NCBI GenBank assembly: GCA_964352335.1
Contig: CAYGRO010000001.1
Span: 125,942-189,941 of the forward strand
Direction of reading: 5' to 3'
From: an uncultured Gammaproteobacteria bacterium
GTDB taxonomy: Bacteria; Patescibacteriota; Patescibacteriia; VMEV01; CAYQCH01
Length of the DNA stretch: 64,000 nt
Positions 467 through 24,015 of the stretch are shown here, in pieces (positions within the stretch are counted from its first letter, which is position 1; each line of letters starts with the position of its first letter). Below the pieces are notes generated by a model. It searched no databases. It was not told where the DNA came from and was given only the letters and a program-made list of their open reading frames with translations. The translations under genes were made by a program, and so were the position numbers.

Positions 467-970
467 TGGTATGGCTCTCCTTCTCTTTTGGCTCGTCCCT
501 CATCTCCACACACCATGCGCGGAGACCCCAGACGAGCCTCGTTCAATGACAGATTTTAACGCAAAATATGCGCTAAAATCTGCCATTGAGTGATTGTAAA
601 GAACAACGAAATAATATAACACGAATTGGACAAAAAAGCAAGCACAGGCCTATTTTTTTCTAATTAAAAAAAATGCATTTGGGCTCCGGGCATTCACCCC
701 TTTTCAGCCAGAGGCTGATCCGCCTTTGGAGGAAATTCCCCTCTGCCCTCCGCCCAAAAAGAAAAATTTTGTTTTGCTTCATTTGAAGAAAAGCTATTAA
801 ATGCAAAAAGGAATGATAAAAAATGTACGTCGTACAACAGCGCCTAAGCGACAAGCCTTTGCTCCGATGATCCGAATAGCCTATCATCTACGCAAAGGCG
901 CGTCGCCTAGGCGCGAACGTTGTCGGTCATTAATTTGTTTTTTCTCTAAATAAAGCTTTTAATTTGTAGT

Positions 971-1447
971 GTGAATAATAACTATCTCAAATTTCGAAAG
1001 GTCTGGTTCTTATTAGTCCCCATCCAAGTGGTATCAATTGTGTCCCTCTTCATCATCACAACTGCTTATGGGTACTGGGATTTCAAGAGTTCAGGGCTTT
1101 TATTTGGATACCCGCTCTCGATTAGCATTCTATTTGTACCGATTTACGAAGAAATCATCTTCAGAGGATTCATTCTTGAGTGGCTCACAAAACAGATGAG
1201 AAAGAATAGTGCCATTATCATTTCCTCTCTCCTTTTCGGACTGTGGCACCTAAAAAACATATTCTTCCTCACTACTGGTGAGTTGATCTATCAAATGCTC
1301 TACACAGCCCTGATTTTCGGACCAATCGTAGCGGTTGTGACCCTAAGAACTAGAACCATCTGGATAGCGGTCATTATTCACTACCTCCACAACATTCTGT
1401 CTGCAGCATCCTGGGATATCCTAGCAATGCTGAACAAATTAACTTGA
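971..1447 (+). CDS. CPBP family intramembrane metalloprotease (CAAX protease/Abi-like)
   Basis: Motifs EExxxR (YEEIIFRG), FxxxH (FGLWH) and HxxxN (HYLHN) within a multi-TM protein. Confidence 0.75.
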   Translation: MNNNYLKFRKVWFLLVPIQVVSIVSLFIITTAYGYWDFKSSGLLFGYPLSISILFVPIYEEIIFRGFILEWLTKQMRKNSAIIISSLLFGLWHLKNIFFLTTGELIYQMLYTALIFGPIVAVVTLRTRTIWIAVIIHYLHNILSAASWDILAMLNKLT

Positions 1448-1574
1448 TGGGAAAAAACAAATTCACGAACCGACAACAGCGGTCTATTCGACATATCACC
1501 ATGGTCAAAAACCATACCATGTCGATTCATCGCATAGACCGCAAACGTTAGCTGAAATTTCACCCCTCCTCACT

Positions 1575-2222
1575 ATGATAGATAAACAAACATTTGAATT
1601 AGTAAACAAGTTGTGGGATTACCACCACGTTAATCAATTTCTTGAAAAATCTGATTGCATTTTAGTTCTGGGTAGTCATGATTTGAGGGTCGCCGAAAGA
1701 GGCGCAGAATTATATCTTCAAGGATTGGCACCTATTATAATTTTTTCTGGTGGCCTTGGAAATTTTACAAAAGAAATTTGGGATGAAGCTGAGGCTGACA
1801 AGTTCGCAACTATTGCTATGAATATGGGAGTTCCGCGTGATGCAATTTTGATCGAAAATAAATCAACGAACACTGGCGAAAATATTTTATTTACGCAACA
1901 GTTGCTAAAAGAAAAAGATCTTGATCCGCAAAGTTTTATCGTTGTGCAAAAACCATATATGGAAAGAAGGAGTTATGCGACATTTAAAAAGCATTGGCCT
2001 GACAAAAAACTTGCAGTAACATCGCCCCAAATTTCTTTTGAAAAATACCCAAACGATGAAATTCCGCTTGAGAAGGTGATAAATATCATGGTCGGCGACT
2101 TACAAAGGATTAAAATCTACCCAGAAAAAGGGTATCAAATTTTTCAAGAGATACCAGAGAATGTGTGGTCAGCGTACGAAAAACTTGTCGACCTTGGCTA
2201 TACTGATCACTTGGTTAAATAA
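1575..2222 (+). CDS. YdcF/DUF218 (ElyC/SanA-like) family protein
   Basis: Typical DUF218 core (ILVLGSHD ... IIFSGG ... TNTGENI). Confidence 0.65.
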   Translation: MIDKQTFELVNKLWDYHHVNQFLEKSDCILVLGSHDLRVAERGAELYLQGLAPIIIFSGGLGNFTKEIWDEAEADKFATIAMNMGVPRDAILIENKSTNTGENILFTQQLLKEKDLDPQSFIVVQKPYMERRSYATFKKHWPDKKLAVTSPQISFEKYPNDEIPLEKVINIMVGDLQRIKIYPEKGYQIFQEIPENVWSAYEKLVDLGYTDHLVK

Positions 2223-2459
2223 ACAGGAGGAGTGAAACATCATATAACACTGGCTATGCGGTTCAGCTTCGCTTCACCCATATTTGCTTCGGAAACATCA
2301 CACACGCAAACGTTATATGAAATAGCTTTTTGTCTTCTGGGCTTCGCCCAGTTTTTTAAATGGAAAGAATTTGATTTATTAAATTAGGGATGTTCAGGTG
2401 TCACTTGCTCATTTTATGATAAAATCGTTGGCACAGTTGTAAAGAACAACTAAAAACTT

Positions 2460-3191
2460 CTACTTAACCAACCTCGTCTCAACCGTACTTAACAATTCCG
2501 TCGCAAATTCAAAATTAGCAAATAATGCTAATGAATTGGTAAACACCAAAATCCCTAAAATAATTAAAAGCGCACCAAACGCACCATTAATATATTTAAC
2601 GTATTTAGAAAATTTGCTAATAAATTTAGCGGCTGGGCTAGCAAATAATCCCACCAATAAAAATGGGATCCCTAAACCTAGTGCGTAAACAAGTAGTAAG
2701 CTAAAGGCGGCACCTGGTTGTGTTGCAGCCAATCCTAATATCGCTCCTAATACTGCACCAACACAAGGAGTCCAACCAGCAGCAAAGGCGGCACCAAAGA
2801 CAAATGATGTGAGATATTTTGAATTGAATTTTTTCTTTACTCTAAACTTATGTTCTTTTTCTAAGGCAGAAATTTTAATAAGTCCTGTTAAGTAAAGCCC
2901 AAAGAAAATAATTATAACACCACCAACTCGCCCCGCCCAAAGAGTGGCATCATAAGCGACTGAAGCTAAAATGGTATTTAAGATAACTCCGAGTAAGGCA
3001 AAAATGACCGAGAAACCTAAAACAAAAAAGAGACTATTTACAAAAATAGCCAGTCGATGATTTTTAGATTCGTCTAAAGACGTTCCTGCGAGATACGATA
3101 AAAAACCAGGAATAATTGGTAGAACACAAGGAGATAAAAAAGAAACAAGCCCCGCTAAAAAAGCGATAAAAAAACCAAATTCAGAATACAT
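2460..3191 (-). CDS. ccdA: cytochrome c-type biogenesis protein CcdA (DsbD-like thiol-disulfide transporter)
   Basis: Polytopic membrane protein with Cys in TM1 (SPCVLPIIPGFLSY) and a second Cys (WTPCVGAVLGAIL). Confidence 0.75.
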   Translation of the reverse strand: MYSEFGFFIAFLAGLVSFLSPCVLPIIPGFLSYLAGTSLDESKNHRLAIFVNSLFFVLGFSVIFALLGVILNTILASVAYDATLWAGRVGGVIIIFFGLYLTGLIKISALEKEHKFRVKKKFNSKYLTSFVFGAAFAAGWTPCVGAVLGAILGLAATQPGAAFSLLLVYALGLGIPFLLVGLFASPAAKFISKFSKYVKYINGAFGALLIILGILVFTNSLALFANFEFATELLSTVETRLVK

Positions 3192-3223
3192 AAAATAGGA
3201 TTAACAATAGAGAATGAATAATC

Positions 3224-3442
3224 TTATTCTAAGTTATTTTGTAATTGAAAGCGAACCAATTCTTTGCCGTCTTGCTCAACAGGCTGTAAAAAAAGATCTA
3301 GAGGCCTTGCCCAAATTTTTTCTGGTTCCTGAATATTTTGATACACAACCATCTCTTCTAAACTCTCTGAATGTTTGGCTAATGCAAGAATTTTATATTC
3401 TCCCCCTTTATAGTGTTTATACATTTGTCCTATTTCTATCAT
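3224..3442 (-). CDS. DUF1653 family protein
   Basis: YKHYKGGEYKI signature motif. The overlapping + strand ORF 3214..3444 is rejected. Confidence 0.55.
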   Translation of the reverse strand: MIEIGQMYKHYKGGEYKILALAKHSESLEEMVVYQNIQEPEKIWARPLDLFLQPVEQDGKELVRFQLQNNLE

Positions 3443-3453
3443 AAAACCTCGAT

Positions 3454-3861
3454 CTAAATGATTTCTTCTTCCTCTTCTTCAGGTTCTTCGCCTAATAAAA
3501 TTTCTGATGAATGAAGCATTTCTTTAACTAGTCGAGCTCCTTTCATTTGTTTATCGGTAAGCTTTTCTTTATATTGTTTTAATTCTCGCCCTACTTCATC
3601 TTTAAGGGCATCTATTGCGGCATACAAATCGGCATGCACAGCTTCTGCACTTATTAATTGACCTGGTACATCAATATTTGCCTCTGCTTTATAAACATCG
3701 CCTTTTTGATGATGATTTGTTGTTCGTTCTAATAAAATATCAACCGATGCATGTGTCCCTTCTGGTAAAAATTTTGATAACTCTGTTATTTTATTCCACG
3801 CATATTCTCGAATTGGCTCTGTTAACTCCATGTGATTAGCCTGTATTTTATTGAGCTTCAT
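3454..3861 (-). CDS. hpf: ribosome hibernation promoting factor (RaiA/HPF family)
   Basis: N-terminal YfiA/HPF fold sequence (MKLNKIQANHMELTEPIREY...) with an acidic C-terminal tail. Confidence 0.85.
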   Translation of the reverse strand: MKLNKIQANHMELTEPIREYAWNKITELSKFLPEGTHASVDILLERTTNHHQKGDVYKAEANIDVPGQLISAEAVHADLYAAIDALKDEVGRELKQYKEKLTDKQMKGARLVKEMLHSSEILLGEEPEEEEEEII

Positions 3862-3959
3862 AGATTTTAAATCAATGGTTATCTACCCCATTATACAATT
3901 TTTCCAAAGAAATGTCTCAAGCCCCTTGTCATCCCCAAGTAGGCGGGAGTGACAAAAAG

Positions 3960-4829
3960 CTATTTCTGACAACTCACACAAAAATGGGTTCCTCGCCCGG
4001 CTAATTTGGTTTTTTGAATATAATCATCTCCACATCGATCACATCTTTCCCCTTCTCGTCCATAGACTTTTAGATAATCAATATACCCGCCTTTTTTTCC
4101 AGAAGCATCAACAAAATTGGAAAATGTCGTACCACGTTTGGCAACCGCTTGTTCTAAAATAGTATTGCAAGCAGTAAAAAGTCTTTTCTTTTCTGGCCGG
4201 GTAAGCATATTAACCAATCGATCTGGTAGAATTTTAGCTCGATAACAAATTTCATCTGCATAAATATTTCCAATACCTGCAATAACTTGTTGATTGAGTA
4301 AAAGCGCTTTAAGAGAAGTTTTTCTGCGTTCAAATAGGTTTTCAAAAGCCTCCCAAGTAAAATCTAATGTTAATGGTTCAATGCCAAATTTGCTCAAAGC
4401 TGTGGCTGTTTGCACTTCATTGGCGAGATGAAGATATCCAAAGGTTCGTATATCATTAAAATAGAGAATAGATTCATCTGCAAAGTGAATGGCAATATGC
4501 GTATATTGATTTGGCAATTCATCAATCTTTGCCATCGGATGCCCACCGACAATAAGACCGCCAGGAATTTGGCAAATAAGTTGTCCAGTCATTTTTAAAT
4601 GAATCAGAAGTGTTTTATCACCATAGGCAAGCTCAAAAAATAAGAGTTTTCCTCTACGTCTTACTTGTTCAAATCTATTTCCTTCCAAGACGGAAATAAA
4701 TTCTTTTTCGTCATTTTTAAGACAACGCCCAGTTAGCGCTTCTACTTTACGAATGCCTTTTCCTAAAATGGCATATTGTAAATCTCTTCGAATGGTTTCT
4801 ACTTCTGGCAATTCAGGCATAATCGACAA
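3960..4829 (-). CDS. mutM: formamidopyrimidine-DNA glycosylase
   Basis: N-terminal PELPEVE catalytic motif and a C-terminal zinc finger CxxC...CxxC. Confidence 0.9.
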   Translation of the reverse strand: MSIMPELPEVETIRRDLQYAILGKGIRKVEALTGRCLKNDEKEFISVLEGNRFEQVRRRGKLLFFELAYGDKTLLIHLKMTGQLICQIPGGLIVGGHPMAKIDELPNQYTHIAIHFADESILYFNDIRTFGYLHLANEVQTATALSKFGIEPLTLDFTWEAFENLFERRKTSLKALLLNQQVIAGIGNIYADEICYRAKILPDRLVNMLTRPEKKRLFTACNTILEQAVAKRGTTFSNFVDASGKKGGYIDYLKVYGREGERCDRCGDDYIQKTKLAGRGTHFCVSCQK

Positions 4830-4877
4830 TTAACTTAGTTCGCCTATTTTACCTGTTTTTTTAATAAAATCAACTAC

Positions 4878-4906
4878 TTGCGAATCCCTTTTGTGATTGC
4901 TATTAT
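4878..4906 (+). promoter_or_regulatory. sigma70-like promoter, TTGCGA-17-TATTAT
   Basis: -35 at 4878-4883, 17-nt spacer, -10 at 4901-4906. No CDS lies downstream. Confidence 0.45.
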
Positions 4907-4913
4907 ATTTTTC

Positions 4914-5360
4914 AGGACTAAGTGACCCTGGACACTCCTGACATACTTAGCTTCTACCTAAGTTGATTCCAGTAACATAACATGGAGTATCGTGAAGCTG
5001 AACTTCCAAATTGGTAGCATGAAAAGCTACCACACCACGACGTTCGCAATCAGCACCCACTGAACCGCCAAGTCCCAAGGAAAGGAGGTGCCGTTGAAGA
5101 GCTCGATCTTTGACAGTTACTGACTCCCTCACTTGAAGCGCATACATGCGCTTCCACCGAAGCAGCCTAAAAAGGCTGGAAAGGAGGAAAATCATACCTT
5201 ACACTACAGAAGGCAGTTGCTCATCAACGAGTAGCACTATCTTCGGCTAGCGAAGGCCGCACAACCTAACGGCCGACCTGACAACAGCAGTACAAATCTC
5301 GCTGTATACTCGTCGGCCGTAACACAAAAGAGACATCTGATAAGATGTCTCTTTTGTTTG
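4914..5360 (+). ncRNA. unclassified structured non-coding RNA, about 440 nt
   Basis: Promoter upstream and a rho-independent terminator at the end. About 50% GC in a 35% GC genome. Several perfect hairpins, for example gaagcgcat-ac-atgcgcttc and ggtagc-atgaaaa-gctacc. No convincing ORF. Confidence 0.45.
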
Positions 5361-5366
5361 TTTTGA
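5327..5366 (+). terminator. rho-independent terminator
   Basis: aaaagagacatc / tgataa / gatgtctctttt, a 12-bp perfect stem, followed by gtttgttttg. Confidence 0.65.
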
Positions 5367-5374
5367 TGTTTTGT

Positions 5375-7372
5375 TTATTGGTTTTGAATAACAGGGTCTA
5401 AAATAATTGAACCATAATGCATGGTAACAAAAACTTTGTATTTCCCACTTGAATCTGGTTTAAAGTAAAAACCTAATCCAAGGCTATTCCAATCTTCGTG
5501 GTAAATTGTTCGATAATGATCACCATTTGTTGCAGCTTCAGAAAGAAAGAATGCTAAGGTATCATCTAATACTTTTTTTACAGATTCTGTTGAACCATCT
5601 GCGATCCCCCATGCAATATTTTCTGTAAAGTAATTATCATTCCACCCACCTTCACTATGACGAACTGTCCATTGTAAACCTTTTGTTTCAATCCATTGGT
5701 GCATGCTTTTTCCATCTGGGCGAGTATGCGTTGCAGAATTAATAGAACCCATATATCCAGCCCATTCAGAAGCAGTATTTACCCAACGTTGTTCTAATGT
5801 TAATTCACGTAAATCTTTTTCTGCTCGTAGGTTATTTATTTTTCCTGCCCAATATTCATTTAAAGCAATCAAATCTACTCCTTGTGGAATCGTACCTGCT
5901 TGATAAGGACTTTCTTGTACACCAGAAGTTACAAGCCCTTGTACATTTAATACAATTTCATTGCTATAAATATCACAAGCATCTCCAGTATAACGACAAA
6001 CTCTAAAATAATATTTACCTGCAGGCATATTTACTTTTCTAAACTCAAAAGCATTTGGGTCTGCGATATAGATAGAAGAATTTTCTGGATACGTTGGTAA
6101 TTGATCAATTGAATAAACAATTTTATATCCTAAAGAAGAATCTAAGCTTGTTTTTTGCCAACTCAACTTTACAACATCATTTTCTAATACGCCTGATAAT
6201 TGAATAGATCCACCAGGAAGAACCGAAGAACCATCGTTTTCAGAAATAAATATTTTTATATCATTACTATAAACACCACATGTTTTTCCTGTATATTGGC
6301 AAATACGGAAATGGTACTCTCGCCCATCACTTGCTACTTTAAATGCCATTTTTCTTATTTTTTCATCGTCTACAAAAATGGCAGTATCCTCAGAAAGTGT
6401 TGGATTCACTTTTGTACCATAAACTATTTTAAATCCTCGTGAAACATTTGTTTGGTTTACTGACCAGGAAAGATGAACAGTATTATCAATCAATTGACCA
6501 CTTAAACCAATGCTTCCAAAAACTTCTAATTCATCATCTTCTGGGATTTCATTTTTTACATCAGGAATTTCTTCTCCTCGTTTTTCGGCAAGAAAAACAT
6601 CAAAACTTTCAAAAGAAATTTCTTCTAAATCCTTATTAGAAATACCTAAACTAAGCTCTCGCATAATGCGATATGCTTCTGCCCCATCTTTTAGATAATG
6701 AACTGATAAATCTGTTGGATTAATATAATACGCTTCTCCATGAAGCTCTACAGCTAAAACAATTTTTCCTTTTACTTGTGTTGCTAATGTTTTATCTCCA
6801 GCTAGTAATCGATTAATATCTGCTGTAGAAGCACCTAAACCAAATTCACGCATCATTTGATAAGCAGTCGCTCCATCTTTCATATAAAAACGACGTCCAT
6901 CATCTGGATGCACATACCATGCTTCCCCATGATTTTCTACTTGGAGCAAAATATAACCACGAAGCTTTCTTGAAAGCTCAGTGTCTTTCACTTCATTTGA
7001 TGAAGTTGTTTCTTTGGCTTGCGTTGTTTCAATTTTCACAGCATCACCCTTTTCACCTGTAAATTGACGACCAGTAACCGTAATAAATGTATTCCAAACA
7101 TATCCTTTTCTTCCATCTTTCATTAATACAAGGTACCAACCATCTGCTTCTCCAATAATATCGACGGTAAGTCCTGCAGAAATACTTCCAACTGTGGAAC
7201 TATCCATACAAGTCATATCTCGCATATTAACGGTTGAGTTAACGGAACCAGTCCATTTAACGGTTGTAACAGGTTCTGTACAACTTCCTGCTTGTGCTTG
7301 AATAACCAAGCTTGCTGAGAGCAATAAAGTGCTCATCAAAGCGATACTCAGTCCTAAAATGCGCTTATTCAT
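5375..7372 (-). CDS. secreted multidomain protein: signal peptide, SH3b-like, two ~50-aa repeats, two FN3-like repeats, C-terminal CAP/SCP (YkwD-like) domain
   Basis: Signal peptide MNKRILGLSIALMSTLLLSASLVIQAQA. Internal repeated modules. C-terminal CAP motifs HTRPDG and ENIAWG. Confidence 0.6.
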   Translation of the reverse strand: MNKRILGLSIALMSTLLLSASLVIQAQAGSCTEPVTTVKWTGSVNSTVNMRDMTCMDSSTVGSISAGLTVDIIGEADGWYLVLMKDGRKGYVWNTFITVTGRQFTGEKGDAVKIETTQAKETTSSNEVKDTELSRKLRGYILLQVENHGEAWYVHPDDGRRFYMKDGATAYQMMREFGLGASTADINRLLAGDKTLATQVKGKIVLAVELHGEAYYINPTDLSVHYLKDGAEAYRIMRELSLGISNKDLEEISFESFDVFLAEKRGEEIPDVKNEIPEDDELEVFGSIGLSGQLIDNTVHLSWSVNQTNVSRGFKIVYGTKVNPTLSEDTAIFVDDEKIRKMAFKVASDGREYHFRICQYTGKTCGVYSNDIKIFISENDGSSVLPGGSIQLSGVLENDVVKLSWQKTSLDSSLGYKIVYSIDQLPTYPENSSIYIADPNAFEFRKVNMPAGKYYFRVCRYTGDACDIYSNEIVLNVQGLVTSGVQESPYQAGTIPQGVDLIALNEYWAGKINNLRAEKDLRELTLEQRWVNTASEWAGYMGSINSATHTRPDGKSMHQWIETKGLQWTVRHSEGGWNDNYFTENIAWGIADGSTESVKKVLDDTLAFFLSEAATNGDHYRTIYHEDWNSLGLGFYFKPDSSGKYKVFVTMHYGSIILDPVIQNQ

Positions 7373-7456
7373 AGAAAAAAAAGTTAATCAATGATTAATT
7401 ATTGTCGTTTGATTATAGGGAAAATAAACCACTTTGAAAAGCGAAAACTCCCTGAT

Positions 7457-7485
7457 TGACAAAATGTGATATTTTCTTTATATTT
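7457..7485 (+). promoter_or_regulatory. sigma70-like promoter, TTGACA-17-TATATT, upstream of the paired receiver genes
   Basis: Sequence match only. Confidence 0.4.
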
Positions 7486-7568
7486 ACTTGATTGTTTTTT
7501 CATCTTAGCGATAAATCTTTGTATTTATCTTTATGATGAAAATGACCACAGAAAGGGTCTAATAATTA

Positions 7569-7960
7569 TGTGCAAAATCCTTTGCGTCGATGACGACAAG
7601 GTAATGCTCCTCCTTATCGAGGAGTTCCTCGAGTGCAAATTTCCATCAGTAACGGTGGTTACCCATCAGTCCCCGCTCGAGGCAATCTCACAAGTCAAGA
7701 ATGACGAGAACATCAGTCTTGTCATCACTGACTGCGACATGGGCGAAGTGTCCGGCTTCGATGTCATCGAGGCCTGTATCGCGAAAGGCCTCCCCTCTGC
7801 CATCATGGTGAGTGGAGACGACACCAACCTAAAAACGGCGCTGTTCAAATTCAAAGACAAAATCCACTTCCAGACGCTCAACAAGCCAGCAAGCTTGCGA
7901 GAGCTGGAAGTGACCATCCGACACTCATTGGAACAACCAGAAAGGAAGTCTTGCTTATGA
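7569..7960 (+). CDS. single-domain response regulator (CheY-like receiver); high-GC cassette
   Basis: Acidic pocket CVDDD, phospho-acceptor Asp in ITDCDM, Ser in MVSGDD, conserved Lys-Pro (LNKPAS). GC is about 52%. Confidence 0.6.
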
Positions 7961-8352
7961 GCATCATCATCTACGTAGAAGACGAGGAAGAGTTCAGCGA
8001 CAGACTATTCCCACTCCTACAAAACCACTTCTCCGAGCATGAAGTCCTGCACTTCTACTGTGGAGGGCAAGCCATCTCTGCTCTTCGACAGAGAAGGGAT
8101 ACCGTCTCACTTCTCATCACCGATATCGCACTTGGTGTTAAGATCGACGGTCTTCAAGTGGCGCGTGCTGCGATGGAGCTTGGTATCAAACGGATCTTCA
8201 TCCTCTCAAGACAGGCCGAAGATCCGCTGAACAACCTCTACATCGACAGATTTGCCCAAAAGTTCGGGTCCACATTCAGGCTCAAGAACAAGCCAGAAGA
8301 CCTAGCAACAACCATCCCACTTATCAAGGAGCTGCTCAATGCAGATATCTAA
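7957..8352 (+). CDS. second single-domain response regulator (receiver)
   Basis: ATGA overlap with the upstream gene. Motifs YVEDEEE, LLITDIAL, ILSRQ and Lys-Pro (KNKPED). Confidence 0.6.
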   Translation: MSIIIYVEDEEEFSDRLFPLLQNHFSEHEVLHFYCGGQAISALRQRRDTVSLLITDIALGVKIDGLQVARAAMELGIKRIFILSRQAEDPLNNLYIDRFAQKFGSTFRLKNKPEDLATTIPLIKELLNADI

Positions 8353-8377
8353 GAGGTGGAGGTGGAACCACACAACC

Positions 8378-8432
8378 CCGCTCCCGCTCGCCGAGTCGCA
8401 AGACATGGCTAGAGCGGGCGGGGTTGTATTCA
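8378..8432 (+). terminator. GC-rich hairpin terminator
   Basis: caaccccgctcccgctc ... gagcgggcggggttg, followed by a T-rich tail. Confidence 0.5.
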
Positions 8433-8501
8433 TTTATTGACCAAGTAAAAGCTTCATGCTATTTATTAAACAAATGTCACGATAAAAGTATTAAATAAGC
8501 A

Positions 8502-9155
8502 TTGAATATTTTTATTGGCAAAGCAGTCCAAGGAGGACTGTTTTGTATTACCAAACAACAAAACAAGAAAGAGAGCATTTACGTGCTCGAGAATACTCCC
8601 GTGCCGTCTCGTGTCTCGGTCATCACCGACTATACGAGTGGAATGGCTATTGGCAACCGGTTCAAGATCTTGATGGGACATATCCTTTCTGGTGTTGACC
8701 CGAAAGTCTTTTCTCGGGCCGAAGAAGCTCGACAGTGGATCTCTACCAATCGACACCAACCCCCATTCCTCTACAACATCATGTGGCCCATACTAGACCA
8801 CTTCAACTCCCCTGAAGAACTGGGAGAAGAAATCCGTCGTGTCGGGTGGCTCGTCTGGGGCCTTGAACCCTTTGTCCTCAAGGGGATCAGTCACATCCTC
8901 ATCTACGGCATTCCTGGCCGAGCGGAGATCAAAGCTTCTTTGATGAAGATGCAATTCCCCAAAGACGAGGAAACCAAGCGCTTCAGCCTGCAGGTCGAAG
9001 CTGAGCTTGAGCAACATCGACCGTTGGGTGAACCACGTCAACCACCTGTCACCGACTACATCGAGATGGGGAAAAAGGGAGACGCCGTGGACCGTCTCTG
9101 CTTGCTCTGGGGCAACTGCCAAGACGTCGCCAACCGAACCCGAATCCGCTCTTGA
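8502..9155 (+). CDS. hypothetical protein partnered with the two receivers; start uncertain, GTG at 8583 is an alternative
   Basis: Long ORF in the same high-GC block. No family recognised. Confidence 0.4.
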   Translation: MNIFIGKAVQGGLFCITKQQNKKESIYVLENTPVPSRVSVITDYTSGMAIGNRFKILMGHILSGVDPKVFSRAEEARQWISTNRHQPPFLYNIMWPILDHFNSPEELGEEIRRVGWLVWGLEPFVLKGISHILIYGIPGRAEIKASLMKMQFPKDEETKRFSLQVEAELEQHRPLGEPRQPPVTDYIEMGKKGDAVDRLCLLWGNCQDVANRTRIRS

Positions 9156-9202
9156 CAACCCAGATATTCTGTCCTATGCTAGGTACAGGATAGGAGGAAT
9201 CC

Positions 9203-9310
9203 ATGAACGAAATCGAAAAGGCCTTCGCGGCCGCCCTCGACGCCAAGATCAACTCGATCTCGGCGAAGAAGACCGAGCCTTCCGAGGCTCACACCACGTC
9301 CGCGGCCTAG
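9203..9310 (+). CDS. small ORF, 35 aa (MNEIEKAFAAALDAKINSISAKKTEPSEAHTTSAA)
   Basis: Strong SD GGAGGA 6 nt upstream of ATG. Below the ORF-track length cutoff. Inside the high-GC block. Confidence 0.35.
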   Translation: MNEIEKAFAAALDAKINSISAKKTEPSEAHTTSAA

Positions 9311-9539
9311 CACCATGCTGGGCCACAACAATTCGTCGCAACCGCCTTGAGGTGGAACCAGTCATCGCTCTCCCGAGCAACCGACCAGTTCCACCTCTTC
9401 GCCTTTATAGGGACTTTTTCAAGTCTTTTTTTAATACAAAAAAACACCCATCTCTAGGTGCCAACCATCTTAGCAAAAGCCTACTCTCCTACTTTCCTAC
9501 TAGCTTTTAGCAAAGTAGCTAGTAAGAGGGTAGCGACAA

Positions 9540-10508
9540 TTAAACAGTCTCCGGAAACAACATATCAATAATCTTGCTCGCCACATCTCGAGACTTACCA
9601 ATGGTTGGTTCATGATGAATGGTTAAACCTGGATCAGATTCTAATTCAGTAATAAAGCCAGGTCGCCTTGAAATATCTGTAGAAAAAAAATCTACTCCAA
9701 TAATGTCAGCATCAAAATACTTCGCAATTTTTTTAGCCATTTGTTTTACTTCTTTGCAAAGTGAATCAGTTATATCAATAGAAATACCTCCACGATGAGA
9801 ATTTGAAAGCATTCCCAATGCAATTCTTTGGCCACGAGTTGGGATATCGGTTAATTTCATTCCTTGCTTTTTGAGTAATGCCTTACTTTCATCTGTCATT
9901 TTAATTTTTCTATTAGCAACTGGAACTATTTTATTCCATGAAAGGAGCAAATCATTAATAGAAGATTTTCCATCACCAAGAAGATGAGCTGGTACGCGCT
10001 TTACCGCAAAAACAAATTTTTTATTCACCACAAGAATACGATGATCTTCTCCTTTTAATTGTTTTTGAGCTAAAACTGTTTTTTTATATCTTCGACTACA
10101 ACTTAAAGATTTTTCTATTGCTTTTTTAAACTGAGATGGCTTTGTAATATTTACCGTAACACCTTTTCCACCATAGGAGTCCGTTGGTTTAATTACAATC
10201 TGTTTATGCTTATGTAAAAATGCTGTTAATTCTTTTTTTGAATCTGTTAAAAGACAAACGGGCGATGGCAAAGCTAGATCTTGTAAAATTTGAGCCGTTA
10301 AATATTTATCATTAAAAATATCACCGCTTACATACCCCGTTTTATTAGTACCAGCGCGCTTAATAAATTCACGATGTTTTTTGTATTCCAAAATTGCATA
10401 GCTTTCATATTTTTTCCCAAACCCTTTTACAGAAATACCTCGAGAACGAGCTTCATCTACAAGATATTGTGTATAGATACTGAATTTGTGTTCTACTGTT
10501 TTTTTCAT
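9540..10508 (-). CDS. RimK-like ATP-grasp ligase (CphA N-domain-like)
   Basis: Motifs IVIKPTDSYGGKGV and DIIGVDFF, and a C-terminal PTIGKSRDVASKIIDMLFP motif like other RimK-type grasp enzymes. Confidence 0.7.
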   Translation of the reverse strand: MKKTVEHKFSIYTQYLVDEARSRGISVKGFGKKYESYAILEYKKHREFIKRAGTNKTGYVSGDIFNDKYLTAQILQDLALPSPVCLLTDSKKELTAFLHKHKQIVIKPTDSYGGKGVTVNITKPSQFKKAIEKSLSCSRRYKKTVLAQKQLKGEDHRILVVNKKFVFAVKRVPAHLLGDGKSSINDLLLSWNKIVPVANRKIKMTDESKALLKKQGMKLTDIPTRGQRIALGMLSNSHRGGISIDITDSLCKEVKQMAKKIAKYFDADIIGVDFFSTDISRRPGFITELESDPGLTIHHEPTIGKSRDVASKIIDMLFPETV

Positions 10509-10550
10509 ATTGATTCATTGTAAAGAGCATCTCCCGTTCTACAGGATCTT

Positions 10551-11408
10551 CTATACAGTTTCTAAGATTAAAGAACGTTTTTTAATTAAGTGATCAATAA
10601 TAGCACCAGCAATATCTTTTCCTGTTACCATAGAGCATCTCGGAAAAAAACACGGGAAATTTGTTTCTGCAACATACCCTTTTCCACGGTGGATAAGAAT
10701 ATCAACACCGCCAAAATCATAGTCCATTGCATCAACTGCTTTAACAGCTAATTGTTCAATGGCTTTTGAAAACTTTTTCTTTTGAACAAGTGGAGTTGCT
10801 CCAACATTTGAACGAAAATCTCCTTTAGGGGCTCTATATTCAATACTATCGATAACTTTTCCACCTAAAACGATTAAACGAGCAGAACGTCCCCCTGGAA
10901 TAAATTCTCGCATAATCACTCTTTCTGATTTTCCTTTGAAATAATCTGCCAATGAATTTAAAGCAGACAATGAATCTACTTTCATTACCCCTACTCCATG
11001 GCTTCCACCTGTCACCTTGATAATAAGTGGGAATCCCCCCAAGGCAACGGAAGCTTTTTTTAAATCCTCTGGTGTTCTTGGTAATGCATCAATTGTTTTT
11101 GGCTGACGAACTTGCTTTAATCGGTATCTATTAAATGAGTCATAGCTTATAAGTACTCTTTCTAAATTTTTGTGCAATGTAATTGGTTCTTGATGAGATA
11201 AAAAACTTTGAACAATAGCGCTTCGTTTACCAACACTAGATTTATACAATAAATCTCCCTTTTTTACTTTCAAAGGATTGGTAAATGAAAACTCATCAGG
11301 GTTGATTTCAATATAATCAATAGATCGCTCTGCACAAGCGGTGGCAAAGCGAATATTGATATCTGCATTTTTTTCTCGAGTGATATTTATGAATCGTATT
11401 TTTTTCAT
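10551..11408 (-). CDS. RimK family alpha-L-glutamate ligase-like ATP-grasp enzyme
   Basis: Motifs PLIIKVTGGSHGVGVMKV, GGVDIL and GKDIAGAIIDHL. Confidence 0.75.
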   Translation of the reverse strand: MKKIRFINITREKNADINIRFATACAERSIDYIEINPDEFSFTNPLKVKKGDLLYKSSVGKRSAIVQSFLSHQEPITLHKNLERVLISYDSFNRYRLKQVRQPKTIDALPRTPEDLKKASVALGGFPLIIKVTGGSHGVGVMKVDSLSALNSLADYFKGKSERVIMREFIPGGRSARLIVLGGKVIDSIEYRAPKGDFRSNVGATPLVQKKKFSKAIEQLAVKAVDAMDYDFGGVDILIHRGKGYVAETNFPCFFPRCSMVTGKDIAGAIIDHLIKKRSLILETV

Positions 11409-12346
11409 AGATATTTTTCAATATGATCGACAAATTTCACAAGAATTTTTTTCACTTCTTTTTCATGACCAGGTGTCATCTCTAAAGTTGGATTATGATT
11501 CATTTCAATAAGCTTTGGTGTTTTACGATTCAAAAACAACATATCTACTGAATACATTGTATTTTGAAAAGGCTTTAATCGTTTTGTTACTTCTTGTACA
11601 AGTTTTTTAGCTTGAGGAGGTAAATCAGAAAGAGCAATAAAAATTCGTGTACCACCCTGAGCAATATTACAAAGCTCTTTACCTTTAGCAGGAGTACGAA
11701 TATATGCTTGAATAGGTTTATGATCAAGACAAATAACTCGTAAATCATGAATCCCTTTAAATAAGCTAGGGATTCCTTGTTTACTATCTAAAAATGGTTG
11801 CATAATCGCTGGAAACTTTCCTTTGTACTGAGCAACTTTTTTTGAGGAAGAAATTTCTACTCCATTTCCACAAATACCACGAAGGTATTTCGTAACCCAT
11901 TTTCGTGTAGTTTTATGCTTTTTAGCAATTGCAGATAATTCTTCTTTATTATGCGCCAAATAAGATGGAATCGTTATTTCAGGAAACATTAAATGGGTCA
12001 TGAACTTATCTTCTGCAATCATTTGTACTCGTGGAGGATTTAAAGAGGGAGCCATTTCTTGCATCATATTTTTTATTGGCATCCGCTTATCTGAGCAGGC
12101 TGAACGATCTAAAATATAATCCGGCTTGAGATTTTTATTCTTTTCAACAAAGTTCTTACCGTCCCAAATATAATAAGAGGCAAATCCTTTTTCTGATAAT
12201 TCTTGAATATTGGTCCATACTACTTTTATTCCTCGCTCTTTTGCGATTTCATATAACCACAAATATGGCTGAATAATTTTCTCTGCCAAAATTCCATATT
12301 CCCTATTTTTCAGTTTATATCCGAAACAAATAGCAACTATTTTCAT
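11405..12346 (-). CDS. divergent ATP-grasp ligase
   Basis: 4-nt overlap with the downstream gene. ATP-grasp C-terminal motifs CNIAQGG, VDMLF and IEMNHNP. Confidence 0.55.
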   Translation of the reverse strand: MKIVAICFGYKLKNREYGILAEKIIQPYLWLYEIAKERGIKVVWTNIQELSEKGFASYYIWDGKNFVEKNKNLKPDYILDRSACSDKRMPIKNMMQEMAPSLNPPRVQMIAEDKFMTHLMFPEITIPSYLAHNKEELSAIAKKHKTTRKWVTKYLRGICGNGVEISSSKKVAQYKGKFPAIMQPFLDSKQGIPSLFKGIHDLRVICLDHKPIQAYIRTPAKGKELCNIAQGGTRIFIALSDLPPQAKKLVQEVTKRLKPFQNTMYSVDMLFLNRKTPKLIEMNHNPTLEMTPGHEKEVKKILVKFVDHIEKYL

Positions 12347-12513
12347 AAAAAGTAACTTTAATCATAAAAAAACAACATGGGTGCAATGACCAGTTGTTTC
12401 GCTGTTCAAGACTATTACAACATATATTTACCAAAAAAGCAAGTTATTTTGCAATTTTCCCTATTTTGACTATACTAATGCATTCCCAACCACCACCAAG
12501 AACGAGGTAGAAT

Positions 12514-12963
12514 ATGACTATCACAATCATTGCCTCTCTCGAAGAAGGTAGTGAACAATGGGACGCAGTACAGCTTGGCTTACGCATTAAGGAGCAAACC
12601 TCGGTAGGTATGCTCTATAAGCGCTATAACGAGCTCAATACAGCAATCAACAAAATCGACACTGAGGAGCGTTGGTCAGACCTTCGTTTTCTCATCATCT
12701 CTCATGCTAGCGTTCTGCAGGCCATCGACCCAGAAGCGGGAACGATGTCAGCCGTGTCTGCTGAACTACAGCGAGTGAAAGACAAATTCGCTTTCAAGCG
12801 TTATGAACTCGTCATTATTGGAGTTTCCACCAATGACATGTTTGGCCAATCACTCATGCGTAGCGGGTGTGACACCACTTGCTCAGGAGAAGCCCTTCCA
12901 GAGCTTATCCTCGAACTCCTCCAGCCCCGCTCTGGACGGATCAAACTGCCCGACGACCTCTAA
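12514..12963 (+). CDS. hypothetical protein; high-GC cassette
   Basis: GC about 55%. Upstream TTGCAA-17-TATACT promoter and GAGGTAG RBS. Confidence 0.4.
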   Translation: MTITIIASLEEGSEQWDAVQLGLRIKEQTSVGMLYKRYNELNTAINKIDTEERWSDLRFLIISHASVLQAIDPEAGTMSAVSAELQRVKDKFAFKRYELVIIGVSTNDMFGQSLMRSGCDTTCSGEALPELILELLQPRSGRIKLPDDL

Positions 12964-13543
12964 GGTCTCGGGCAGTCTTCATTTTATAGACAAAAATACT
13001 TAACTCTTTTTCTGTCGGCTTGCTCACATATTCTGTCTCCCAACCAGGAATCTCAAATACATAGGAAATAATAATAGTTCCCTCTTTACATTCTTTTTCA
13101 AACTTTTCTTTTAATTTACCTGCTAGTGGTTTAGGCGTTCCAAAAAGATAAATAAGAGAAGCGTCAGACAAATCTTGTTTAAAAAAATCTTTCCACAAAA
13201 AAACCGCTTGAGATTGTGAAAACAATGCTTTAATTTTTGCATAGAAAAAAAGTGGAAAAACGAATTCTATTCCAATGACCTTTTTCTGTAATTCTTGTGC
13301 AATCCCCAACGATACTAAACCGGTTCCTGAACCTAATTCATATAAATTTCCGTGTTCAGGTGCATATTTTTTTACCAATGTAATAATGCGTTGGCGATCT
13401 GATTTTCGAGTAGGAACCCAAGGCGCAAAAACAAAACCAGCATATGCTAATGGAAGCAAAATAAGAATCATCAAAATTAACAGAATGAAATCCATGGGAA
13501 TATTGTTAGAAAACTGCAAAATTGCAAAGTTGCAAAACGGCAA
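12941..13543 (-). CDS. class I SAM-dependent methyltransferase with N-terminal TM segment
   Basis: Motif I LYELGSGTGLVSLGIA. Confidence 0.6.
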   Translation of the reverse strand: MPFCNFAILQFSNNIPMDFILLILMILILLPLAYAGFVFAPWVPTRKSDRQRIITLVKKYAPEHGNLYELGSGTGLVSLGIAQELQKKVIGIEFVFPLFFYAKIKALFSQSQAVFLWKDFFKQDLSDASLIYLFGTPKPLAGKLKEKFEKECKEGTIIISYVFEIPGWETEYVSKPTEKELSIFVYKMKTARDLRGRRAV

Positions 13544-13598
13544 AAGAACTCGAATCTACGAATTAAGACCAATGTACAAATTGATCCCTGACAAATGA

Positions 13599-14873
13599 TC
13601 AAACGATATACCGAATAAAAATATAGACAGTTGAAAGGATAATTGCCAGTAATGATAATGGCACCGCCGTTTTCATATAGTCGACAAATGAAAGTTTATG
13701 CCCGGCTTTTTCTGCCATCCCAGAAACAACAACATTTGCAGACGCCCCAATTAATGTGGCATTTCCACCAAAATCAGCTCCCATTGCAAGTGCCCACCAT
13801 AAAGGTGTGACATCTAGATTTGTTGCTAAGCCCAATTCTTTAATTAATGGAATCATAATTGCAACAAAGGGAACATTATCAACAATGGCAGAAAAAATAG
13901 CACTTCCCCATAATGTCGCCATCAACAAAATACTTCTATTTCCACCTGTTAGTTCTATTAATCCGCCTGCAAGCAATTCAATCGCCCCAACTTGTTCTAG
14001 TCCTGTCACCATAATAAATAAACCGACAAAAAAGAAAATGGTTGTCCATTCACAATCTCGAATATATTCTTCTGGCTCATGCAAAGTAATCAATAACAAT
14101 AAAGCTGCCCCCGTAAGTGCCAGTGTGGCCCCTTCAATTCCTGTTTGGTTATGTGTTAAAAAACCAAGAATAACTAAACCTAAGACAATAAGAGATTTTA
14201 CTAATAAAGCCTTATTGGTAATAGCATCTCTTGGATTGAATTTCATTATTGATTTTTGTGCTAATTCATTAGCCACTAAATCTTTGCGATAGAGTAGAGC
14301 CAATAGCGCGAGTGTACTAATACCAACAACCAAAGAAATTGGCCCCATATGAAATAAAAAGTCATTAAACGAAAGTCCTGCTGCAGAACCAATCAAAATA
14401 TTTGGCTGATCACCAATAAGAGTTGCTGCCCCTCCAATATTGGCAAGCATGATGGCAGAAAATAAAAATGGTTTTGGGCTTGTTCGTAAATTTTGAGCAA
14501 TAACAAAGGTTACAGGTACCATTAATAAAACCGTAGTTACATCATCTAATACGGCAGAAAATACCATGGTAATAATTGCCAGTAAAATAAAAATAGGGAT
14601 TGGTTTCCCTTTCCCCGCTTTCGCTGCCCAAATGGCAATATATTGAAAAATACCTGAATGCTTGGCAATGCCTACTATAACCATCATCCCAATTAAAATA
14701 CCAAGCATATTAAAATCGATCCCTTCGATTGCTTGACGCTGGTTAATTATTCCTAAAATCACCATTAATGCTGCAGCAAAAAGAGCGATAACGGTACGGT
14801 GAACTTTTTCAGTAATGATAATAAAGTAAGCAACGAGAAAAATGGCAACTGCCAAACCCATGAGAACATTCAT
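13599..14873 (-). CDS. ArsB/NhaD superfamily permease (CitMHS/YbiR-like anion transporter)
   Basis: About 12 TM helices with duplicated halves typical of the ArsB/NhaD fold. Confidence 0.7.
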   Translation of the reverse strand: MNVLMGLAVAIFLVAYFIIITEKVHRTVIALFAAALMVILGIINQRQAIEGIDFNMLGILIGMMVIVGIAKHSGIFQYIAIWAAKAGKGKPIPIFILLAIITMVFSAVLDDVTTVLLMVPVTFVIAQNLRTSPKPFLFSAIMLANIGGAATLIGDQPNILIGSAAGLSFNDFLFHMGPISLVVGISTLALLALLYRKDLVANELAQKSIMKFNPRDAITNKALLVKSLIVLGLVILGFLTHNQTGIEGATLALTGAALLLLITLHEPEEYIRDCEWTTIFFFVGLFIMVTGLEQVGAIELLAGGLIELTGGNRSILLMATLWGSAIFSAIVDNVPFVAIMIPLIKELGLATNLDVTPLWWALAMGADFGGNATLIGASANVVVSGMAEKAGHKLSFVDYMKTAVPLSLLAIILSTVYIFIRYIV

Positions 14874-14888
14874 AACATTTATCTATTT

Positions 14889-15398
14889 TTATTTGATACC
14901 AAGCACATCTGCAATGGCACGTTTAATATCTGTATGGTTGATATATCCAACTAATATCCCATCATTATCAACGACAGGTAATTGTCTAATATGAAATTGT
15001 GAAATTTGTGTAGCAGTATGAATCAGCGTATCATCTGGATTTATTACATGTACTTCTTTACTCATGATTTCTACAACAGCTTTATCAGCCAATTGATTTA
15101 CCCTATCCTGAAAAACATTTCCAGCAGCAAATGCAGCTAAATGTTTATCTGACTCTAAATAATCTGGAACAATCGCCTCAATAATTCCCCAAGAAGTAAT
15201 AATACCTACCACATGACGAGTTTCATCTGTTACAACTAATGCATTTGTTTTCTTTTTCACCATTAAAGTGACCGCTTCTTTTAAAGTAGCTGTCTCTTTG
15301 ATATCGACTACATCCTTTCGCATATAGTCGCTTACAATATAATGAGTTGTATTTGGCATAGTTATTGTATTATAGCGAGAAGTTGATAAAGACGACAA
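14889..15398 (-). CDS. CBS domain pair protein
   Basis: Two CBS motifs. Confidence 0.7.
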   Translation of the reverse strand: MSSLSTSRYNTITMPNTTHYIVSDYMRKDVVDIKETATLKEAVTLMVKKKTNALVVTDETRHVVGIITSWGIIEAIVPDYLESDKHLAAFAAGNVFQDRVNQLADKAVVEIMSKEVHVINPDDTLIHTATQISQFHIRQLPVVDNDGILVGYINHTDIKRAIADVLGIK

Positions 15399-15743
15399 CT
15401 ACATTGGTTCATTTTCTCGAATGATATTTAGCTCTTTTCCTTTTTGCGTGTACTTCGCTTTAACTTTTTCTGCTGTTTGCTTGAATCCTTCTTCCAAATC
15501 AATATTCAATTGATTAGCTAATCGACAAAGACCAAAAAAGAGATCGCCCATTTCACTTGTAAATAACTCTTTATTTGTTTTCACAAAATCAATTCGCTCT
15601 TGTTCAGATTTATACCGAAGATGGCGAGACATTTCAATGAGCTCTTCATGAAGATGGTCAAATTTGTCGAGAGAAGGAGTATCATCCCACCCAAGACTTT
15701 CTGTAAAGATTTTGACCTCTTTTTGTAATTGACTAATTTCCAT
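15399..15743 (-). CDS. MazG-like nucleotide pyrophosphohydrolase
   Basis: EExxE and LANQL MazG helices. Confidence 0.7.
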   Translation of the reverse strand: MEISQLQKEVKIFTESLGWDDTPSLDKFDHLHEELIEMSRHLRYKSEQERIDFVKTNKELFTSEMGDLFFGLCRLANQLNIDLEEGFKQTAEKVKAKYTQKGKELNIIRENEPM

Positions 15744-21391: not shown

Positions 21392-21464
21392 GTGGATGTA
21401 GCTTAACAGGGAGAGCACGTCATCAAAAGTGACGAAGGTAGGGGTTCGAGACCCTTCATCCACA
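21392..21464 (+). tRNA. tRNA-like gene with non-canonical anticodon loop UCAAAAG (C33, anticodon AAA if read conventionally)
   Basis: Perfect 7-bp acceptor GTGGATG/CATCCAC. D-loop has A14, G18, G19, A21. Anticodon stem CGTCA/TGACG. T-arm AGGGG-TTCGAGA-CCCTT. Confidence 0.5.
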
Positions 21465-23562: not shown

Positions 23563-23967
23563 CTAGAGCGAATCGCCCGGATCTCGGCTACGGCCAGAGA
23601 TGTCGATCTGGATGTACCGGATGACACTGAGCGGGATGCGAAAGCGACGACGAATGAGCACGGTACTTCCTACCTGCTCTGCAGGGAAGTCCTTGATCAT
23701 CGCACCGAAGCCACCTGGCGTGCACTCAGCTTCCTTGATCGAGTCGAGTGTCTCCCACTTCCCTCGACGGTTGGGGTTGATGGTCAAGACCAGAATGATC
23801 TGGCCCTGCGCCGTCCCTTCGTGGTCTGGCACGAGAGTGATGCTCTCGATATAGGGTGAACGAAAGAGTTCCCCTGTCACTAGACGACCGACCTCTTCTA
23901 AGGTCTTGCCATGCACGATGGCCAACTGCTTTTCATGCTTCACGATAACTTGGTCCGAACCCGACAT
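23563..23967 (-). CDS. hypothetical protein; high-GC cassette directly upstream of argS
   Basis: GC about 57%. GGGGAGGG upstream of ATG. Confidence 0.4.
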   Translation of the reverse strand: MSGSDQVIVKHEKQLAIVHGKTLEEVGRLVTGELFRSPYIESITLVPDHEGTAQGQIILVLTINPNRRGKWETLDSIKEAECTPGGFGAMIKDFPAEQVGSTVLIRRRFRIPLSVIRYIQIDISGRSRDPGDSL

Positions 23968-24015
23968 ATGCCCTCCCCAGGCTTGTTTGTTTTTTCCTCA
24001 CCACAAAAACGGATT

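Follow-up and report, generated by a model that had tools for sequence, protein, structure and literature searches.

We analyzed a stretch of 64,000 nucleotides (nt), called the window below, from a genome labelled as an uncultured gammaproteobacterium and placed by GTDB in the Patescibacteriota (contig CAYGRO010000001.1, positions 125,942 to 189,941). It holds a cassette of three adjacent genes, here termed A, B and C, whose products are ATP-grasp ligases. We find that these genes are co-directional and tightly coupled in a single transcription unit and that they are under strong purifying selection. Judged by sequence, the products are not three RimKs; they fall into three subfamilies, one each for A, B and C. 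Ligases of the same three types recur together, in variable arrangements, in distant Patescibacteria. We favor, tentatively and at slightly less than an even chance, the view that A, B and C share one peptide-building pathway. The genes and their control signals are as follows.

11405..12346, minus strand: ligase A, 313 amino acids (aa)
10551..11408, minus strand: ligase B, 285 aa
9540..10508, minus strand: ligase C, 322 aa
12364..12442, minus strand: conserved 5' region of the cassette, a promoter-like site and then a hairpin with a U7 tract
12442-12437 (-35, TTGCTT) and 12419-12414 (-10, TGTAAT), minus strand: sigma-70-like promoter with a 17-nt spacer
12400-12369, minus strand: terminator-like leader hairpin, U7 tract after it, about 20 nt 5' of the A start codon
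9433..9462, minus strand: terminator-like hairpin and T-run, 78 nt 3' of the C stop codon

The cassette is one transcription unit

The gene coordinates are those of the open reading frame (ORF) listing. They are identical to those of the original prediction, made from the letters of this DNA, which had described three consecutive minus-strand ORFs of 313, 285 and 322 aa with a 4-nt overlap between the first two. The stop codon of A and the start codon of B do share 4 nt (11405-11408), and the spacing from B to C is 42 nt. Related loci, designated by L numbers, keep this packing: L001 has gaps of 4 and 21 nt, an overlap of 4 nt occurs in L093, and B and C of L004 overlap by 11 nt. ATP-grasp motifs had been claimed for all three ORFs, and Pfam and NCBIfam ATP-grasp models indeed matched A, B and C alike.

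All three genes are under strong purifying selection: measured against L094, an 82%-identical relative, the ratio of nonsynonymous to synonymous substitution rates (dN/dS) was 0.09 for A, 0.08 for B and 0.12 for C. In an alignment, the equivalents of RimK K141, G148, R189, N213, D248 and E260 were invariant in A, B, C and their orthologues, and the equivalent of N262 was kept in A and B and was Glu in C. With these residues intact, A, B and C are apparently catalytically competent ligases. The original prediction had allowed for only one of the three being intact; we observed that catalytic residues are kept in each.

The intergenic DNA upstream of A is 82.5% identical to that of L093 and 73% identical to that of L001, despite an identity of merely 43-44% between the A protein and its L001 homologue. 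A CTTG...TAAT element and the leader hairpin are conserved upstream of A in an alignment of four relatives. Ten of the ten base pairs of this hairpin are kept in the 4 sequences, with one compensatory change (U-A to A-U), and slid controls pair only 40-72%. Its minimum free energy z-score of -1.5 is not significant alone. The hairpin and U7 tract are possibly a transcription attenuator. Downstream of C, a consensus scan and reading of the minus strand gave a hairpin, GGCACCTAGAGATGGGTGTT, and then TTTTTGTATT; this element (9462-9433) is likely the 3' end of the A-B-C transcript. Selection, the conserved 5' region, the 3' hairpin and the packing together lead us to conclude that the cassette is a real, expressed-looking unit.

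Three ligases of three subfamilies

None of the three proteins reaches the level of a curated housekeeping family: A, B and C scored below every NCBIfam equivalog cut-off for RimK, GshB, LysX, MptN, CofF, CphA, Ngg and Ddl. The original prediction had considered that they might resolve as RimK, a glutathione-synthetase-like enzyme and LysX/ArgX; their profile scores lie below the cut-offs for these identities. Its own designation of the three as RimK-like has to be revised. B is RimK-like, C is of the CphA-G/GshF type, and A is nearest to RloC/ATPgrasp_ST ligases and to GshB/LysX.

B is classed by its sequence as a RimK-like ATP-grasp ligase of a family that is widespread in Patescibacteria. 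It matched Pfam RimK at 77.8 bits and stayed below the RimK cut-offs (95.3 against 143.4 for TIGR00768 and 81.3 against 331 for NF007764). Its best PDB match, which covered the C-terminal 170 aa, was Escherichia coli RimK (5zct/4iwx). The B tail, ...TGKDIAGAIIDHL, aligns with the RimK tail, TGIDIAGKMIRW, and with the CphA1 tail, G.ARNVAG.VMDMLFP. A RimK/CphA-type C-terminal motif had been noted in two of the ORFs; it is present in B and C, both of which align to the RimK and CphA1 tails. Residues K131, G134, G138, G140, R177, N201, D236, E248 and N250 of B are invariant, and its loop reads NVGATP, versus NLHRGG in RimK. We counted 390 B homologues, including proteins from Parcubacteria, Andersenbacteria, Doudnabacteria, Kerfeldbacteria and Gracilibacteria. 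Hundreds are 40-50% identical to B; these come from the groups just named, from Jacksonbacteria and Woesebacteria and from metagenome-assembled genomes (MAGs) of Saccharibacteria. We conclude from them that the window belongs to a Patescibacteria genome. The best match in a B-alignment scan of 185,579 species genomes was 48% identical.

C is homologous to the CphA1 G domain and the GshF ligase domain but stands alone, without N and M domains. It scored 225.6 bits against TIGR02068 over CphA positions 155-473 (cut-off 850), 163 bits against the C-terminal half of GshAB (NF002688; cut-off 425) and 50.1 against TIGR00768 (cut-off 143.4). In the PDB it matched CphA1 (7lgm/7wac) with E values of 1e-40 to 3e-42. 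Its tail, ...PTIGKSRDVASKIIDMLFPETV, aligns with the same RimK and CphA1 tails as that of B. We mapped the residues of C onto TeCphA1, with residue roles taken from published work (PMC9427784). C keeps K220 (K68 in C), K261 (K107), R309 (R157), R323 (R171), N394 (N236), D431 (D273), E450 (E288) and G456 (G294), and it replaces H267 (G113), S396 (H238), R458 (T296), N452 (E290) and E215 (D63). Its P-loop, DSYGGKG, has Gly at the position (H/Y/F) where a GshF-type P-loop has Tyr or Phe. The loop NSHRGG of C matches NLHRGG of the Glu-adding RimK, not NLSTGG of CphA. In CphA1 the loop residues N394/S396 contact the incoming amino acid (PMC9427784), and among C-type paralogues within arrays this N-x-x-x-G-G loop varies (NSHRGG, NLSTGG, NAALGG, NISMGG, NVGAGG and others). 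A metagenome scan with a C-type alignment returned mostly full-length CphA1 genes (~875 aa) and few stand-alone arrays (L095, L150 and L152).

A is a divergent, rare amide ligase of the GshB/RimK/LysX structural class and is RloC-like. Its Pfam scores were 35.2 bits for ATPgrasp_ST, 29.2 for RimK and 28.6 for GSH-S_ATP; the first, a whole-protein score, exceeds the cut-off of 31.4 for ATPgrasp_ST (PF14397), with no single stretch above it. Against TIGR00768, A scored 47.5 (cut-off 143.4). Comparison with ST-type ligases by hhalign gave a probability of 97.8, and profile comparison placed A at about the same distance from B as from the RloC-like ATPgrasp_ST ligases. The specificity loop of A, NIAQGG, has the N[IL]AQG form common to that family. 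Conserved residues are K153, G160/G162, Q183, D201-L-R203, R217, N227, G231, D268 and E281-x-N283; an N227-x-x-x-G-G loop, a Gly-rich loop and the DK lysine of RimK are all present. A PDB sequence search with A gave no match. Its AlphaFold2 model (predicted local distance difference test score [pLDDT] 86.5) is a full three-domain ATP-grasp, whose best Foldseek matches were GshB (1gsa, the top match), LysX/ArgX and RimK, with TM scores of 0.65-0.69; PsnB and MdnC ranked lower. A metagenome scan with an A-type alignment of four closer sequences found no relative.

Comparison with characterized ligases

ATP-grasp ligases phosphorylate a carboxylate and then couple an amine; for GshB and GshF the carboxylate is the C-terminal alpha-carboxylate of a peptide, which gains one amino acid. 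RimK (PMC10375531) and the CphA1 G domain (PMC9427784) likewise extend a C-terminal alpha-carboxylate by one amino acid. B, and more distantly A, resembles RimK in its fold, in the K/R/N/D/E-x-N set of catalytic residues and in the TG.DIAG motif at the C-terminus, and iterative extension of a C-terminal alpha-carboxylate would be the common chemistry. B also adjoins a RimB-type retropepsin domain in other Patescibacteria. The differences are scores far under the RimK cut-offs and the lack of a rimB or rimA gene here. RimK handles Glu and poly-Glu through its basic belt (R96/R98/R102), its DK motif and its NLHRGG loop (PMC10375531). In the cassette, B is without the DK/RxR segment, A has DK but the loop NIAQGG, and only C has NSHRGG.

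C spans the CphA1 G domain end to end (core, lid and omega modules), and its DMLFP tail and the residues for ATP, Mg and acyl phosphate are retained. It differs from CphA1 in size and architecture (322 aa, against an N-G-M protein of ~870 aa), in having E-x-E for E-x-N, and in the residues for recognition of Asp and of the Arg-decorated primer: E215, H267, S396 and R458 are D63, G113, H238 and T296 in C. GshF/GshAB and GshB, which lengthen a peptide by one amino acid at its C-terminus, belong to a common ATP-grasp subclass with these ligases. The structure most similar to A is GshB, and the C-terminal half of GshAB is a strong profile match for C. Set against this, TIGR01380 scores reach at most 49.5 (cut-off 299), the P-loop and substrate residues differ, and there is no glutamate-cysteine ligase partner.

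Genes for S6, cyanophycinase, Mur ligase, FemAB, 7TM-transglutaminase and retropepsin were not found near the cassette, by Pfam on the neighbors and tblastn on the window. This agrees with the original prediction, which had reported neither an S6 nor a cyanophycinase gene nearby; for S6 the tblastn search is a weak test, E. coli S6 being the sole query. Queries for Mur ligase, FemAB, penicillin-binding protein (PBP), LCP, 7TM and retropepsin found nothing by tblastn in the 64 kb. PADLOC gave no defence-system match for the cassette or its flanks.

Ligases of the three types recur in arrays across Patescibacteria

The window, L001 and L093/L094 have the full A-B-C set. In close relatives the locus sits among GlyRS, M16 peptidase, MazG-like, CBS and CitMHS genes, with methyltransferase, CAP/SH3 protein, Fpg and HPF genes as further conserved neighbors. 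For a wider survey we scanned the 185,579 species genomes with the B alignment and classed the ORFs with purpose-built A, B and C hidden Markov models. The arrays included the following (ST, ATPgrasp_ST).

L008/L010: 7TM_transglut - ATPgrasp_ST/retropepsin - A - C - C - B - C
L018: C - C - xseB - B - Mur-ligase - A - A
L011: C-B-C; L021: B-C-C; L046: B-B-C
L012: ST-B-A; L080: ST-A-A-B; L036/L047: ST-B-C-B'

The triad of A, B and C types occurs in at least three separate lineages, with differing gene order. A second ATP-grasp gene lies within 1.5 kb in 16 of the 42 loci that have a close B orthologue. ATP-grasp gene density around B is 0.325 per flank-kb at 0-1 kb and approaches 0 at distances above 5 kb; of 38 neighboring ligase genes, 36 are co-stranded with B. 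This co-clustering in distant Patescibacteria supports a shared multi-step amide-ligation function.

In about 9-10 of the 42 loci the array is preceded by a pair of genes. One encodes a 7TM_transglut protein (PF14402); the other, of ~466 aa, fuses an ATPgrasp_ST ligase to a RimB/RloA-type retropepsin (PF05618). In the RloABC system of Pseudomonas aeruginosa, RloA is a secreted retropepsin that cleaves poly-Glu, RloB is a 7TM inactive transglutaminase and RloC is an ATP-grasp protein; loss of rloB or rloC suppresses the envelope phenotypes of rloA-null cells (PMC11957051). We conclude that in Patescibacteria this pair corresponds to RloB, RloC and RloA of Pseudomonas. Besides these homologous genes flanking B/A/C arrays elsewhere, the N[IL]AQG loop of A is a point of likeness. 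The differences are that Patescibacteria fuse the ligase with the retropepsin and append one to five stand-alone ligases, and that the 7TM gene and the protease are both absent from the window. Published RloB hits are 96% from Proteobacteria, with almost none in Patescibacteria (PMC11957051), and we found no description in the literature of multi-ATP-grasp arrays or Rlo-like systems in Patescibacteria. The Rlo-type neighbors of B elsewhere are the most informative context for the cassette, one that the original prediction had missed.

Wall-related genes are also found near distant arrays: class A PBP genes adjoin them in four loci, and other neighbors are Mur-ligase-like (L018 and L039), FemAB (L018 and L004), LCP (L018) and LysM-M23 peptidase (L004) genes. 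L018 comes from a MAG that is labelled Gammaproteobacteria and has Patescibacteria-like content. Its positions 48-15615 form a 17-gene co-directional string that includes the ligases. Two C-type genes lie between xseA and xseB, B and A-A are separated by a Mur-ligase-like gene (Mur_ligase_M+C, 427 aa), and FemAB, CofD-like and LCP genes are close by. In L039 (6592-7899), B and a homologue of this Mur-ligase gene are divergently oriented.

A proposed shared pathway and the points against it

How might three such ligases act together? We suggest that A, B and C would each phosphorylate the C-terminal alpha-carboxylate of a chain with ATP and join one amino acid to it. The characterized relatives all extend a C-terminal carboxylate; we therefore propose that the three may work on a common growing chain, each adding its own residue. 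The hypervariable loops of C-type ligases within arrays would fit a different residue per ligase. The product would be a short, probably acidic, nonribosomal oligopeptide or peptide tail, acidity being our best guess because of the resemblance of NSHRGG in C to NLHRGG in RimK and the Rlo/retropepsin link. Patescibacteria would then have a recurrent multi-ligase module of combinatorial make-up, with the cassette as a reduced form of it. At other loci this module is often joined to RloB-like and RloC/retropepsin genes, which suggests a product related to the poly-glutamate-like, envelope-linked material inferred for Pseudomonas Rlo. We infer the shared pathway, the C-terminal extension chemistry, the acidic product and the envelope link in this way, and, like the original prediction, we read the cassette as a putative polymer or tailing system.

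A bolder version, which we hold to be rather doubtful, concerns the Patescibacteria as a whole. Combinatorial sets of stand-alone, single-step A-, B-, C- and RloC-type ligases, each with an amino-acid loop of its own, might form an assembly line for peptides that depends on neither nonribosomal peptide synthetases nor the ribosome. Its product, a defined hetero-oligopeptide or branched poly-amino acid, would be passed to an RloB-like 7TM protein for the cell surface, and the window would hold a minimal three-module version.

Several observations weigh against a shared pathway. The syntenic relative L009 has A alone at the locus, the more distant genome L004 has B and C only, and B stands alone in most orthologous loci. 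Ligase content is thus modular, and A, B and C need not form one obligatory pathway. The multi-step system of the original prediction gains from the recurrence of the triad in distant Patescibacteria, but the modular content does not bear out an obligatory three-step pathway. Housekeeping genes (ruvA, xseA and xseB) are interleaved with ligases in long co-directional strings, so part of the ligase adjacency is not functional. In the window, tblastn with Patescibacteria 7TM and protease domains found no RloB, RloC or retropepsin gene, and no product, acceptor or carrier gene was identified for the cassette. The guess that C is specific for Glu rests on one loop motif. B is without the N-terminal ATP-binding Lys (the DK lysine of RimK) and most of the basic belt (R96/R98/R102). 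Finally, the Asn of the Mg-binding E-x-N motif is replaced in C, the sequence being E-L-E in the window and E-L-A in L001. This Asn is present in more distant C orthologues; PurK and some other active ATP-grasp enzymes are also without it.

The high isoelectric points of A, B and C (9.6-9.8) were considered as a sign of an acidic substrate. We judged them uninformative, because Lys-rich, basic proteins are expected in AT-rich genomes of this kind.

Flanking small genes and other features of the window

The original prediction had pointed to small opposite-strand ORFs at 9203 (35 aa) and 12514 (149 aa), and both exist.

9152-9180, plus strand: conserved promoter TTGACA-17-TATGCT, with an AGGAGG site before the 35-codon ORF
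9203..9310, plus strand: 35-aa ORF within a conserved unit (9152-9441), between the convergent p217 and ligase C genes
12514..12963, plus strand: 149-aa ORF, adjoining A on the opposite strand

The counterpart of the 9152-9441 unit in L001 (11264-10979) has an ORF of 39 codons, and the two ORFs have a common C-terminus, EP(S/T)EA(H/Q)TT(S)AA. A long conserved hairpin follows the 35-codon ORF (GAGGUGGAAC...GUUCCACCUC), with one compensatory change. The dN/dS of the ORF is ~0.8, and synonymous sites are better conserved in it than in the neighboring genes (low pS, the proportion of synonymous differences). Hence the unit may be a small RNA, which we consider at least as likely as a peptide. Rfam searches of the window and L001 (gathering threshold) and of 8200-9700 (E-value threshold) found no RNA family in the high-GC flanks.

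The 149-aa protein is lineage-specific, is kept beside A in 4 of 4 relatives and belongs to a family of 7 clusters among 1.84 billion representatives. It had no Pfam or PDB sequence match. Its predicted fold is REC/flavodoxin-like (pLDDT 85.6), with the motifs ERW..LR.LIV, IGVS.N.M and GCD.TC; by our reading of the model, His/Ser would occupy the receiver phospho-acceptor Asp position after beta-3. We considered this protein as a substrate or regulator of the cassette and set it aside, there being no demonstrable link to the cassette.

Codon usage in the window is bimodal. Most genes have a third-position GC content (GC3) of 0.18-0.30, and a scattered, mostly small set has 0.5-0.9. The high-GC3 set includes two REC proteins, an ABC-2 permease, an Rce1-like protease and the unknown proteins of 217 and 149 aa on either side of the cassette. 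Its plus-strand regions at the cassette are 7466-9510 and 12514-12963; further regions are 1-1447, 23563-24142, 25806-26168, 30626-31364, 37844-38620, 41757-42524, 43293-43643 and 57224-57934. High GC3 is kept at the orthologous genes of L001, L009 and L093, whose proteins are 41-65% identical; recent transfer therefore seems unlikely. Public gene calls in L001 (11279-12496; 240 aa and 161 aa, plus strand) appear wrong-stranded: the L001 matches to the window proteins at 8502..9155 (217 aa; 54% identity) and 7951..8352 (REC-like; 33% identity) are on the other strand. The window also carries a tRNA Phe gene (21392-21464, plus strand; ARAGORN, Rfam tRNA score 54.2) with the anticodon AAA. Its anticodon loop, UCAAAAG, has C33 and an unmodified-type A34, both unusual for bacteria. 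A tmRNA gene lies at 24822-25220 (plus strand; Rfam 131 bits) and encodes the tag peptide AKTLTRAKNVLANAFSFSAVPVLA.

Alternative explanations

Are the three ligases perhaps independent enzymes that are merely adjacent? B might be the RimK of this lineage, acting on S6 or making poly-alpha-Glu, C might make a di- or tripeptide resembling glutathione or N-acetylglutaminylglutamine amide, and A might have an unrelated role. The modular ligase content fits this explanation, as do the unrelated genes interleaved in Patescibacteria superoperons and the resemblance of C to the GshAB ligase half and Ngg. However, ATP-grasp genes are enriched beside B in a distance-dependent, co-stranded manner, the triad recurs in separate lineages with differing orders, start and stop codons overlap, and no ligase reaches any equivalog cut-off. 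We regard independence as somewhat unlikely. The cassette might instead add residues to the C-terminus of one specific protein in the manner of RimK, TTL or LysX, the target being S6, the product of the 35-aa ORF at 9203 or the 149-aa REC-like protein. RimK, LysX/ArgX and TTL, all among the best relatives of A and B, target protein C-termini (PMC10375531), and the acyl-carboxylate Arg (RimK R189) is invariant. The small ORF lies beside C in both genomes that carry B and C and, with the whole 9152-9441 unit, is absent from the A-only relative L009; the 149-aa gene is constantly beside A, as noted above. Yet the small ORF is without protein-level constraint, and an RNA element fits it better. 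Both small genes share the high-GC3 usage of the opposite-strand genes, not that of the cassette, and neither occurs in distant arrays. The same tblastn search with E. coli S6 gave no S6 gene in the window. The LysX/ArgX-LysW system, in which several RimK-type ligases act on a small acidic carrier, would be a model for such tailing. Here there is no LysW-like Zn-ribbon carrier and there are no lysine or arginine pathway genes, the sole nearby small ORF has neither Cys nor an acidic EGWGE-type tail, and B scores 75.4 against the LysX model TIGR02144 (cut-off 275.6). On balance, tailing of a specific protein is unlikely.

Could the ligases serve cell-wall chemistry, adding amino acids to the peptidoglycan stem peptide, a cross-bridge or a wall-linked polymer? 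The enterococcal D-aspartate ligase, an ATP-grasp enzyme, offers a parallel. The class A PBP, Mur-ligase-like, FemAB, LCP and LysM-M23 genes near distant arrays would agree with such a role, as would the envelope and morphology phenotypes of Pseudomonas Rlo mutants (PMC11957051). But such wall genes were not found in the window, the associations may reflect conserved synteny of a few related lineages, and similarity to Ddl or Asl-type ligases never exceeded that to RimK or CphA; we think a wall function quite improbable. Still less probable, to the point of being very unlikely, is a split, all-ATP-grasp cyanophycin-like synthetase in which C extends a poly-Asp/Glu backbone and A or B decorates its side chains. 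C is closest to the CphA1 G domain, and one distant array has a Mur-ligase (M-domain-like) gene. However, Asp and primer residues are replaced in C (H267G, S396H and R458T), and an S396W substitution abolishes CphA1 activity (PMC9427784); moreover, the N and M domains and a cyanophycinase are lacking, and C scores 225.6 where the CphA cut-off is 850. Graspetide maturases, which form lactone or lactam cross-links in ribosomally made precursor peptides, seem to us the least probable explanation of all. Graspetide clusters are known from candidate phyla radiation (CPR) bacteria (PMC8939145), though these are of a different kind from A-B-C. PsnB and MdnC are among the lower-ranked structural matches of A, and a distant C homologue, in a 65%-GC organism (L005), adjoins a radical SAM gene. 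Against this, no NCBIfam maturase model matched at E<0.01, and the best relatives are backbone-extending ligases. The locus has no precursor-like conserved peptide under protein-level selection, no cluster-23 gene, no TPR gene and no leader peptidase.

Significance

Patescibacteria (CPR) live as ultra-small episymbionts and have hardly any biosynthetic capacity. ATP-consuming ligases that are kept under selection in such biosynthetically poor cells therefore likely matter for their biology, and ligases of the A, B and C types perhaps serve the cell surface or contact with the host. Our analysis joins RimK-like, CphA-G-like and RloC-like ligases into one recurrent, variable gene module and extends the little-understood Rlo system to Patescibacteria. 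The three-gene cassette offers a tractable entry to the products of stand-alone CphA-G enzymes and to new amino-acid ligase specificities.

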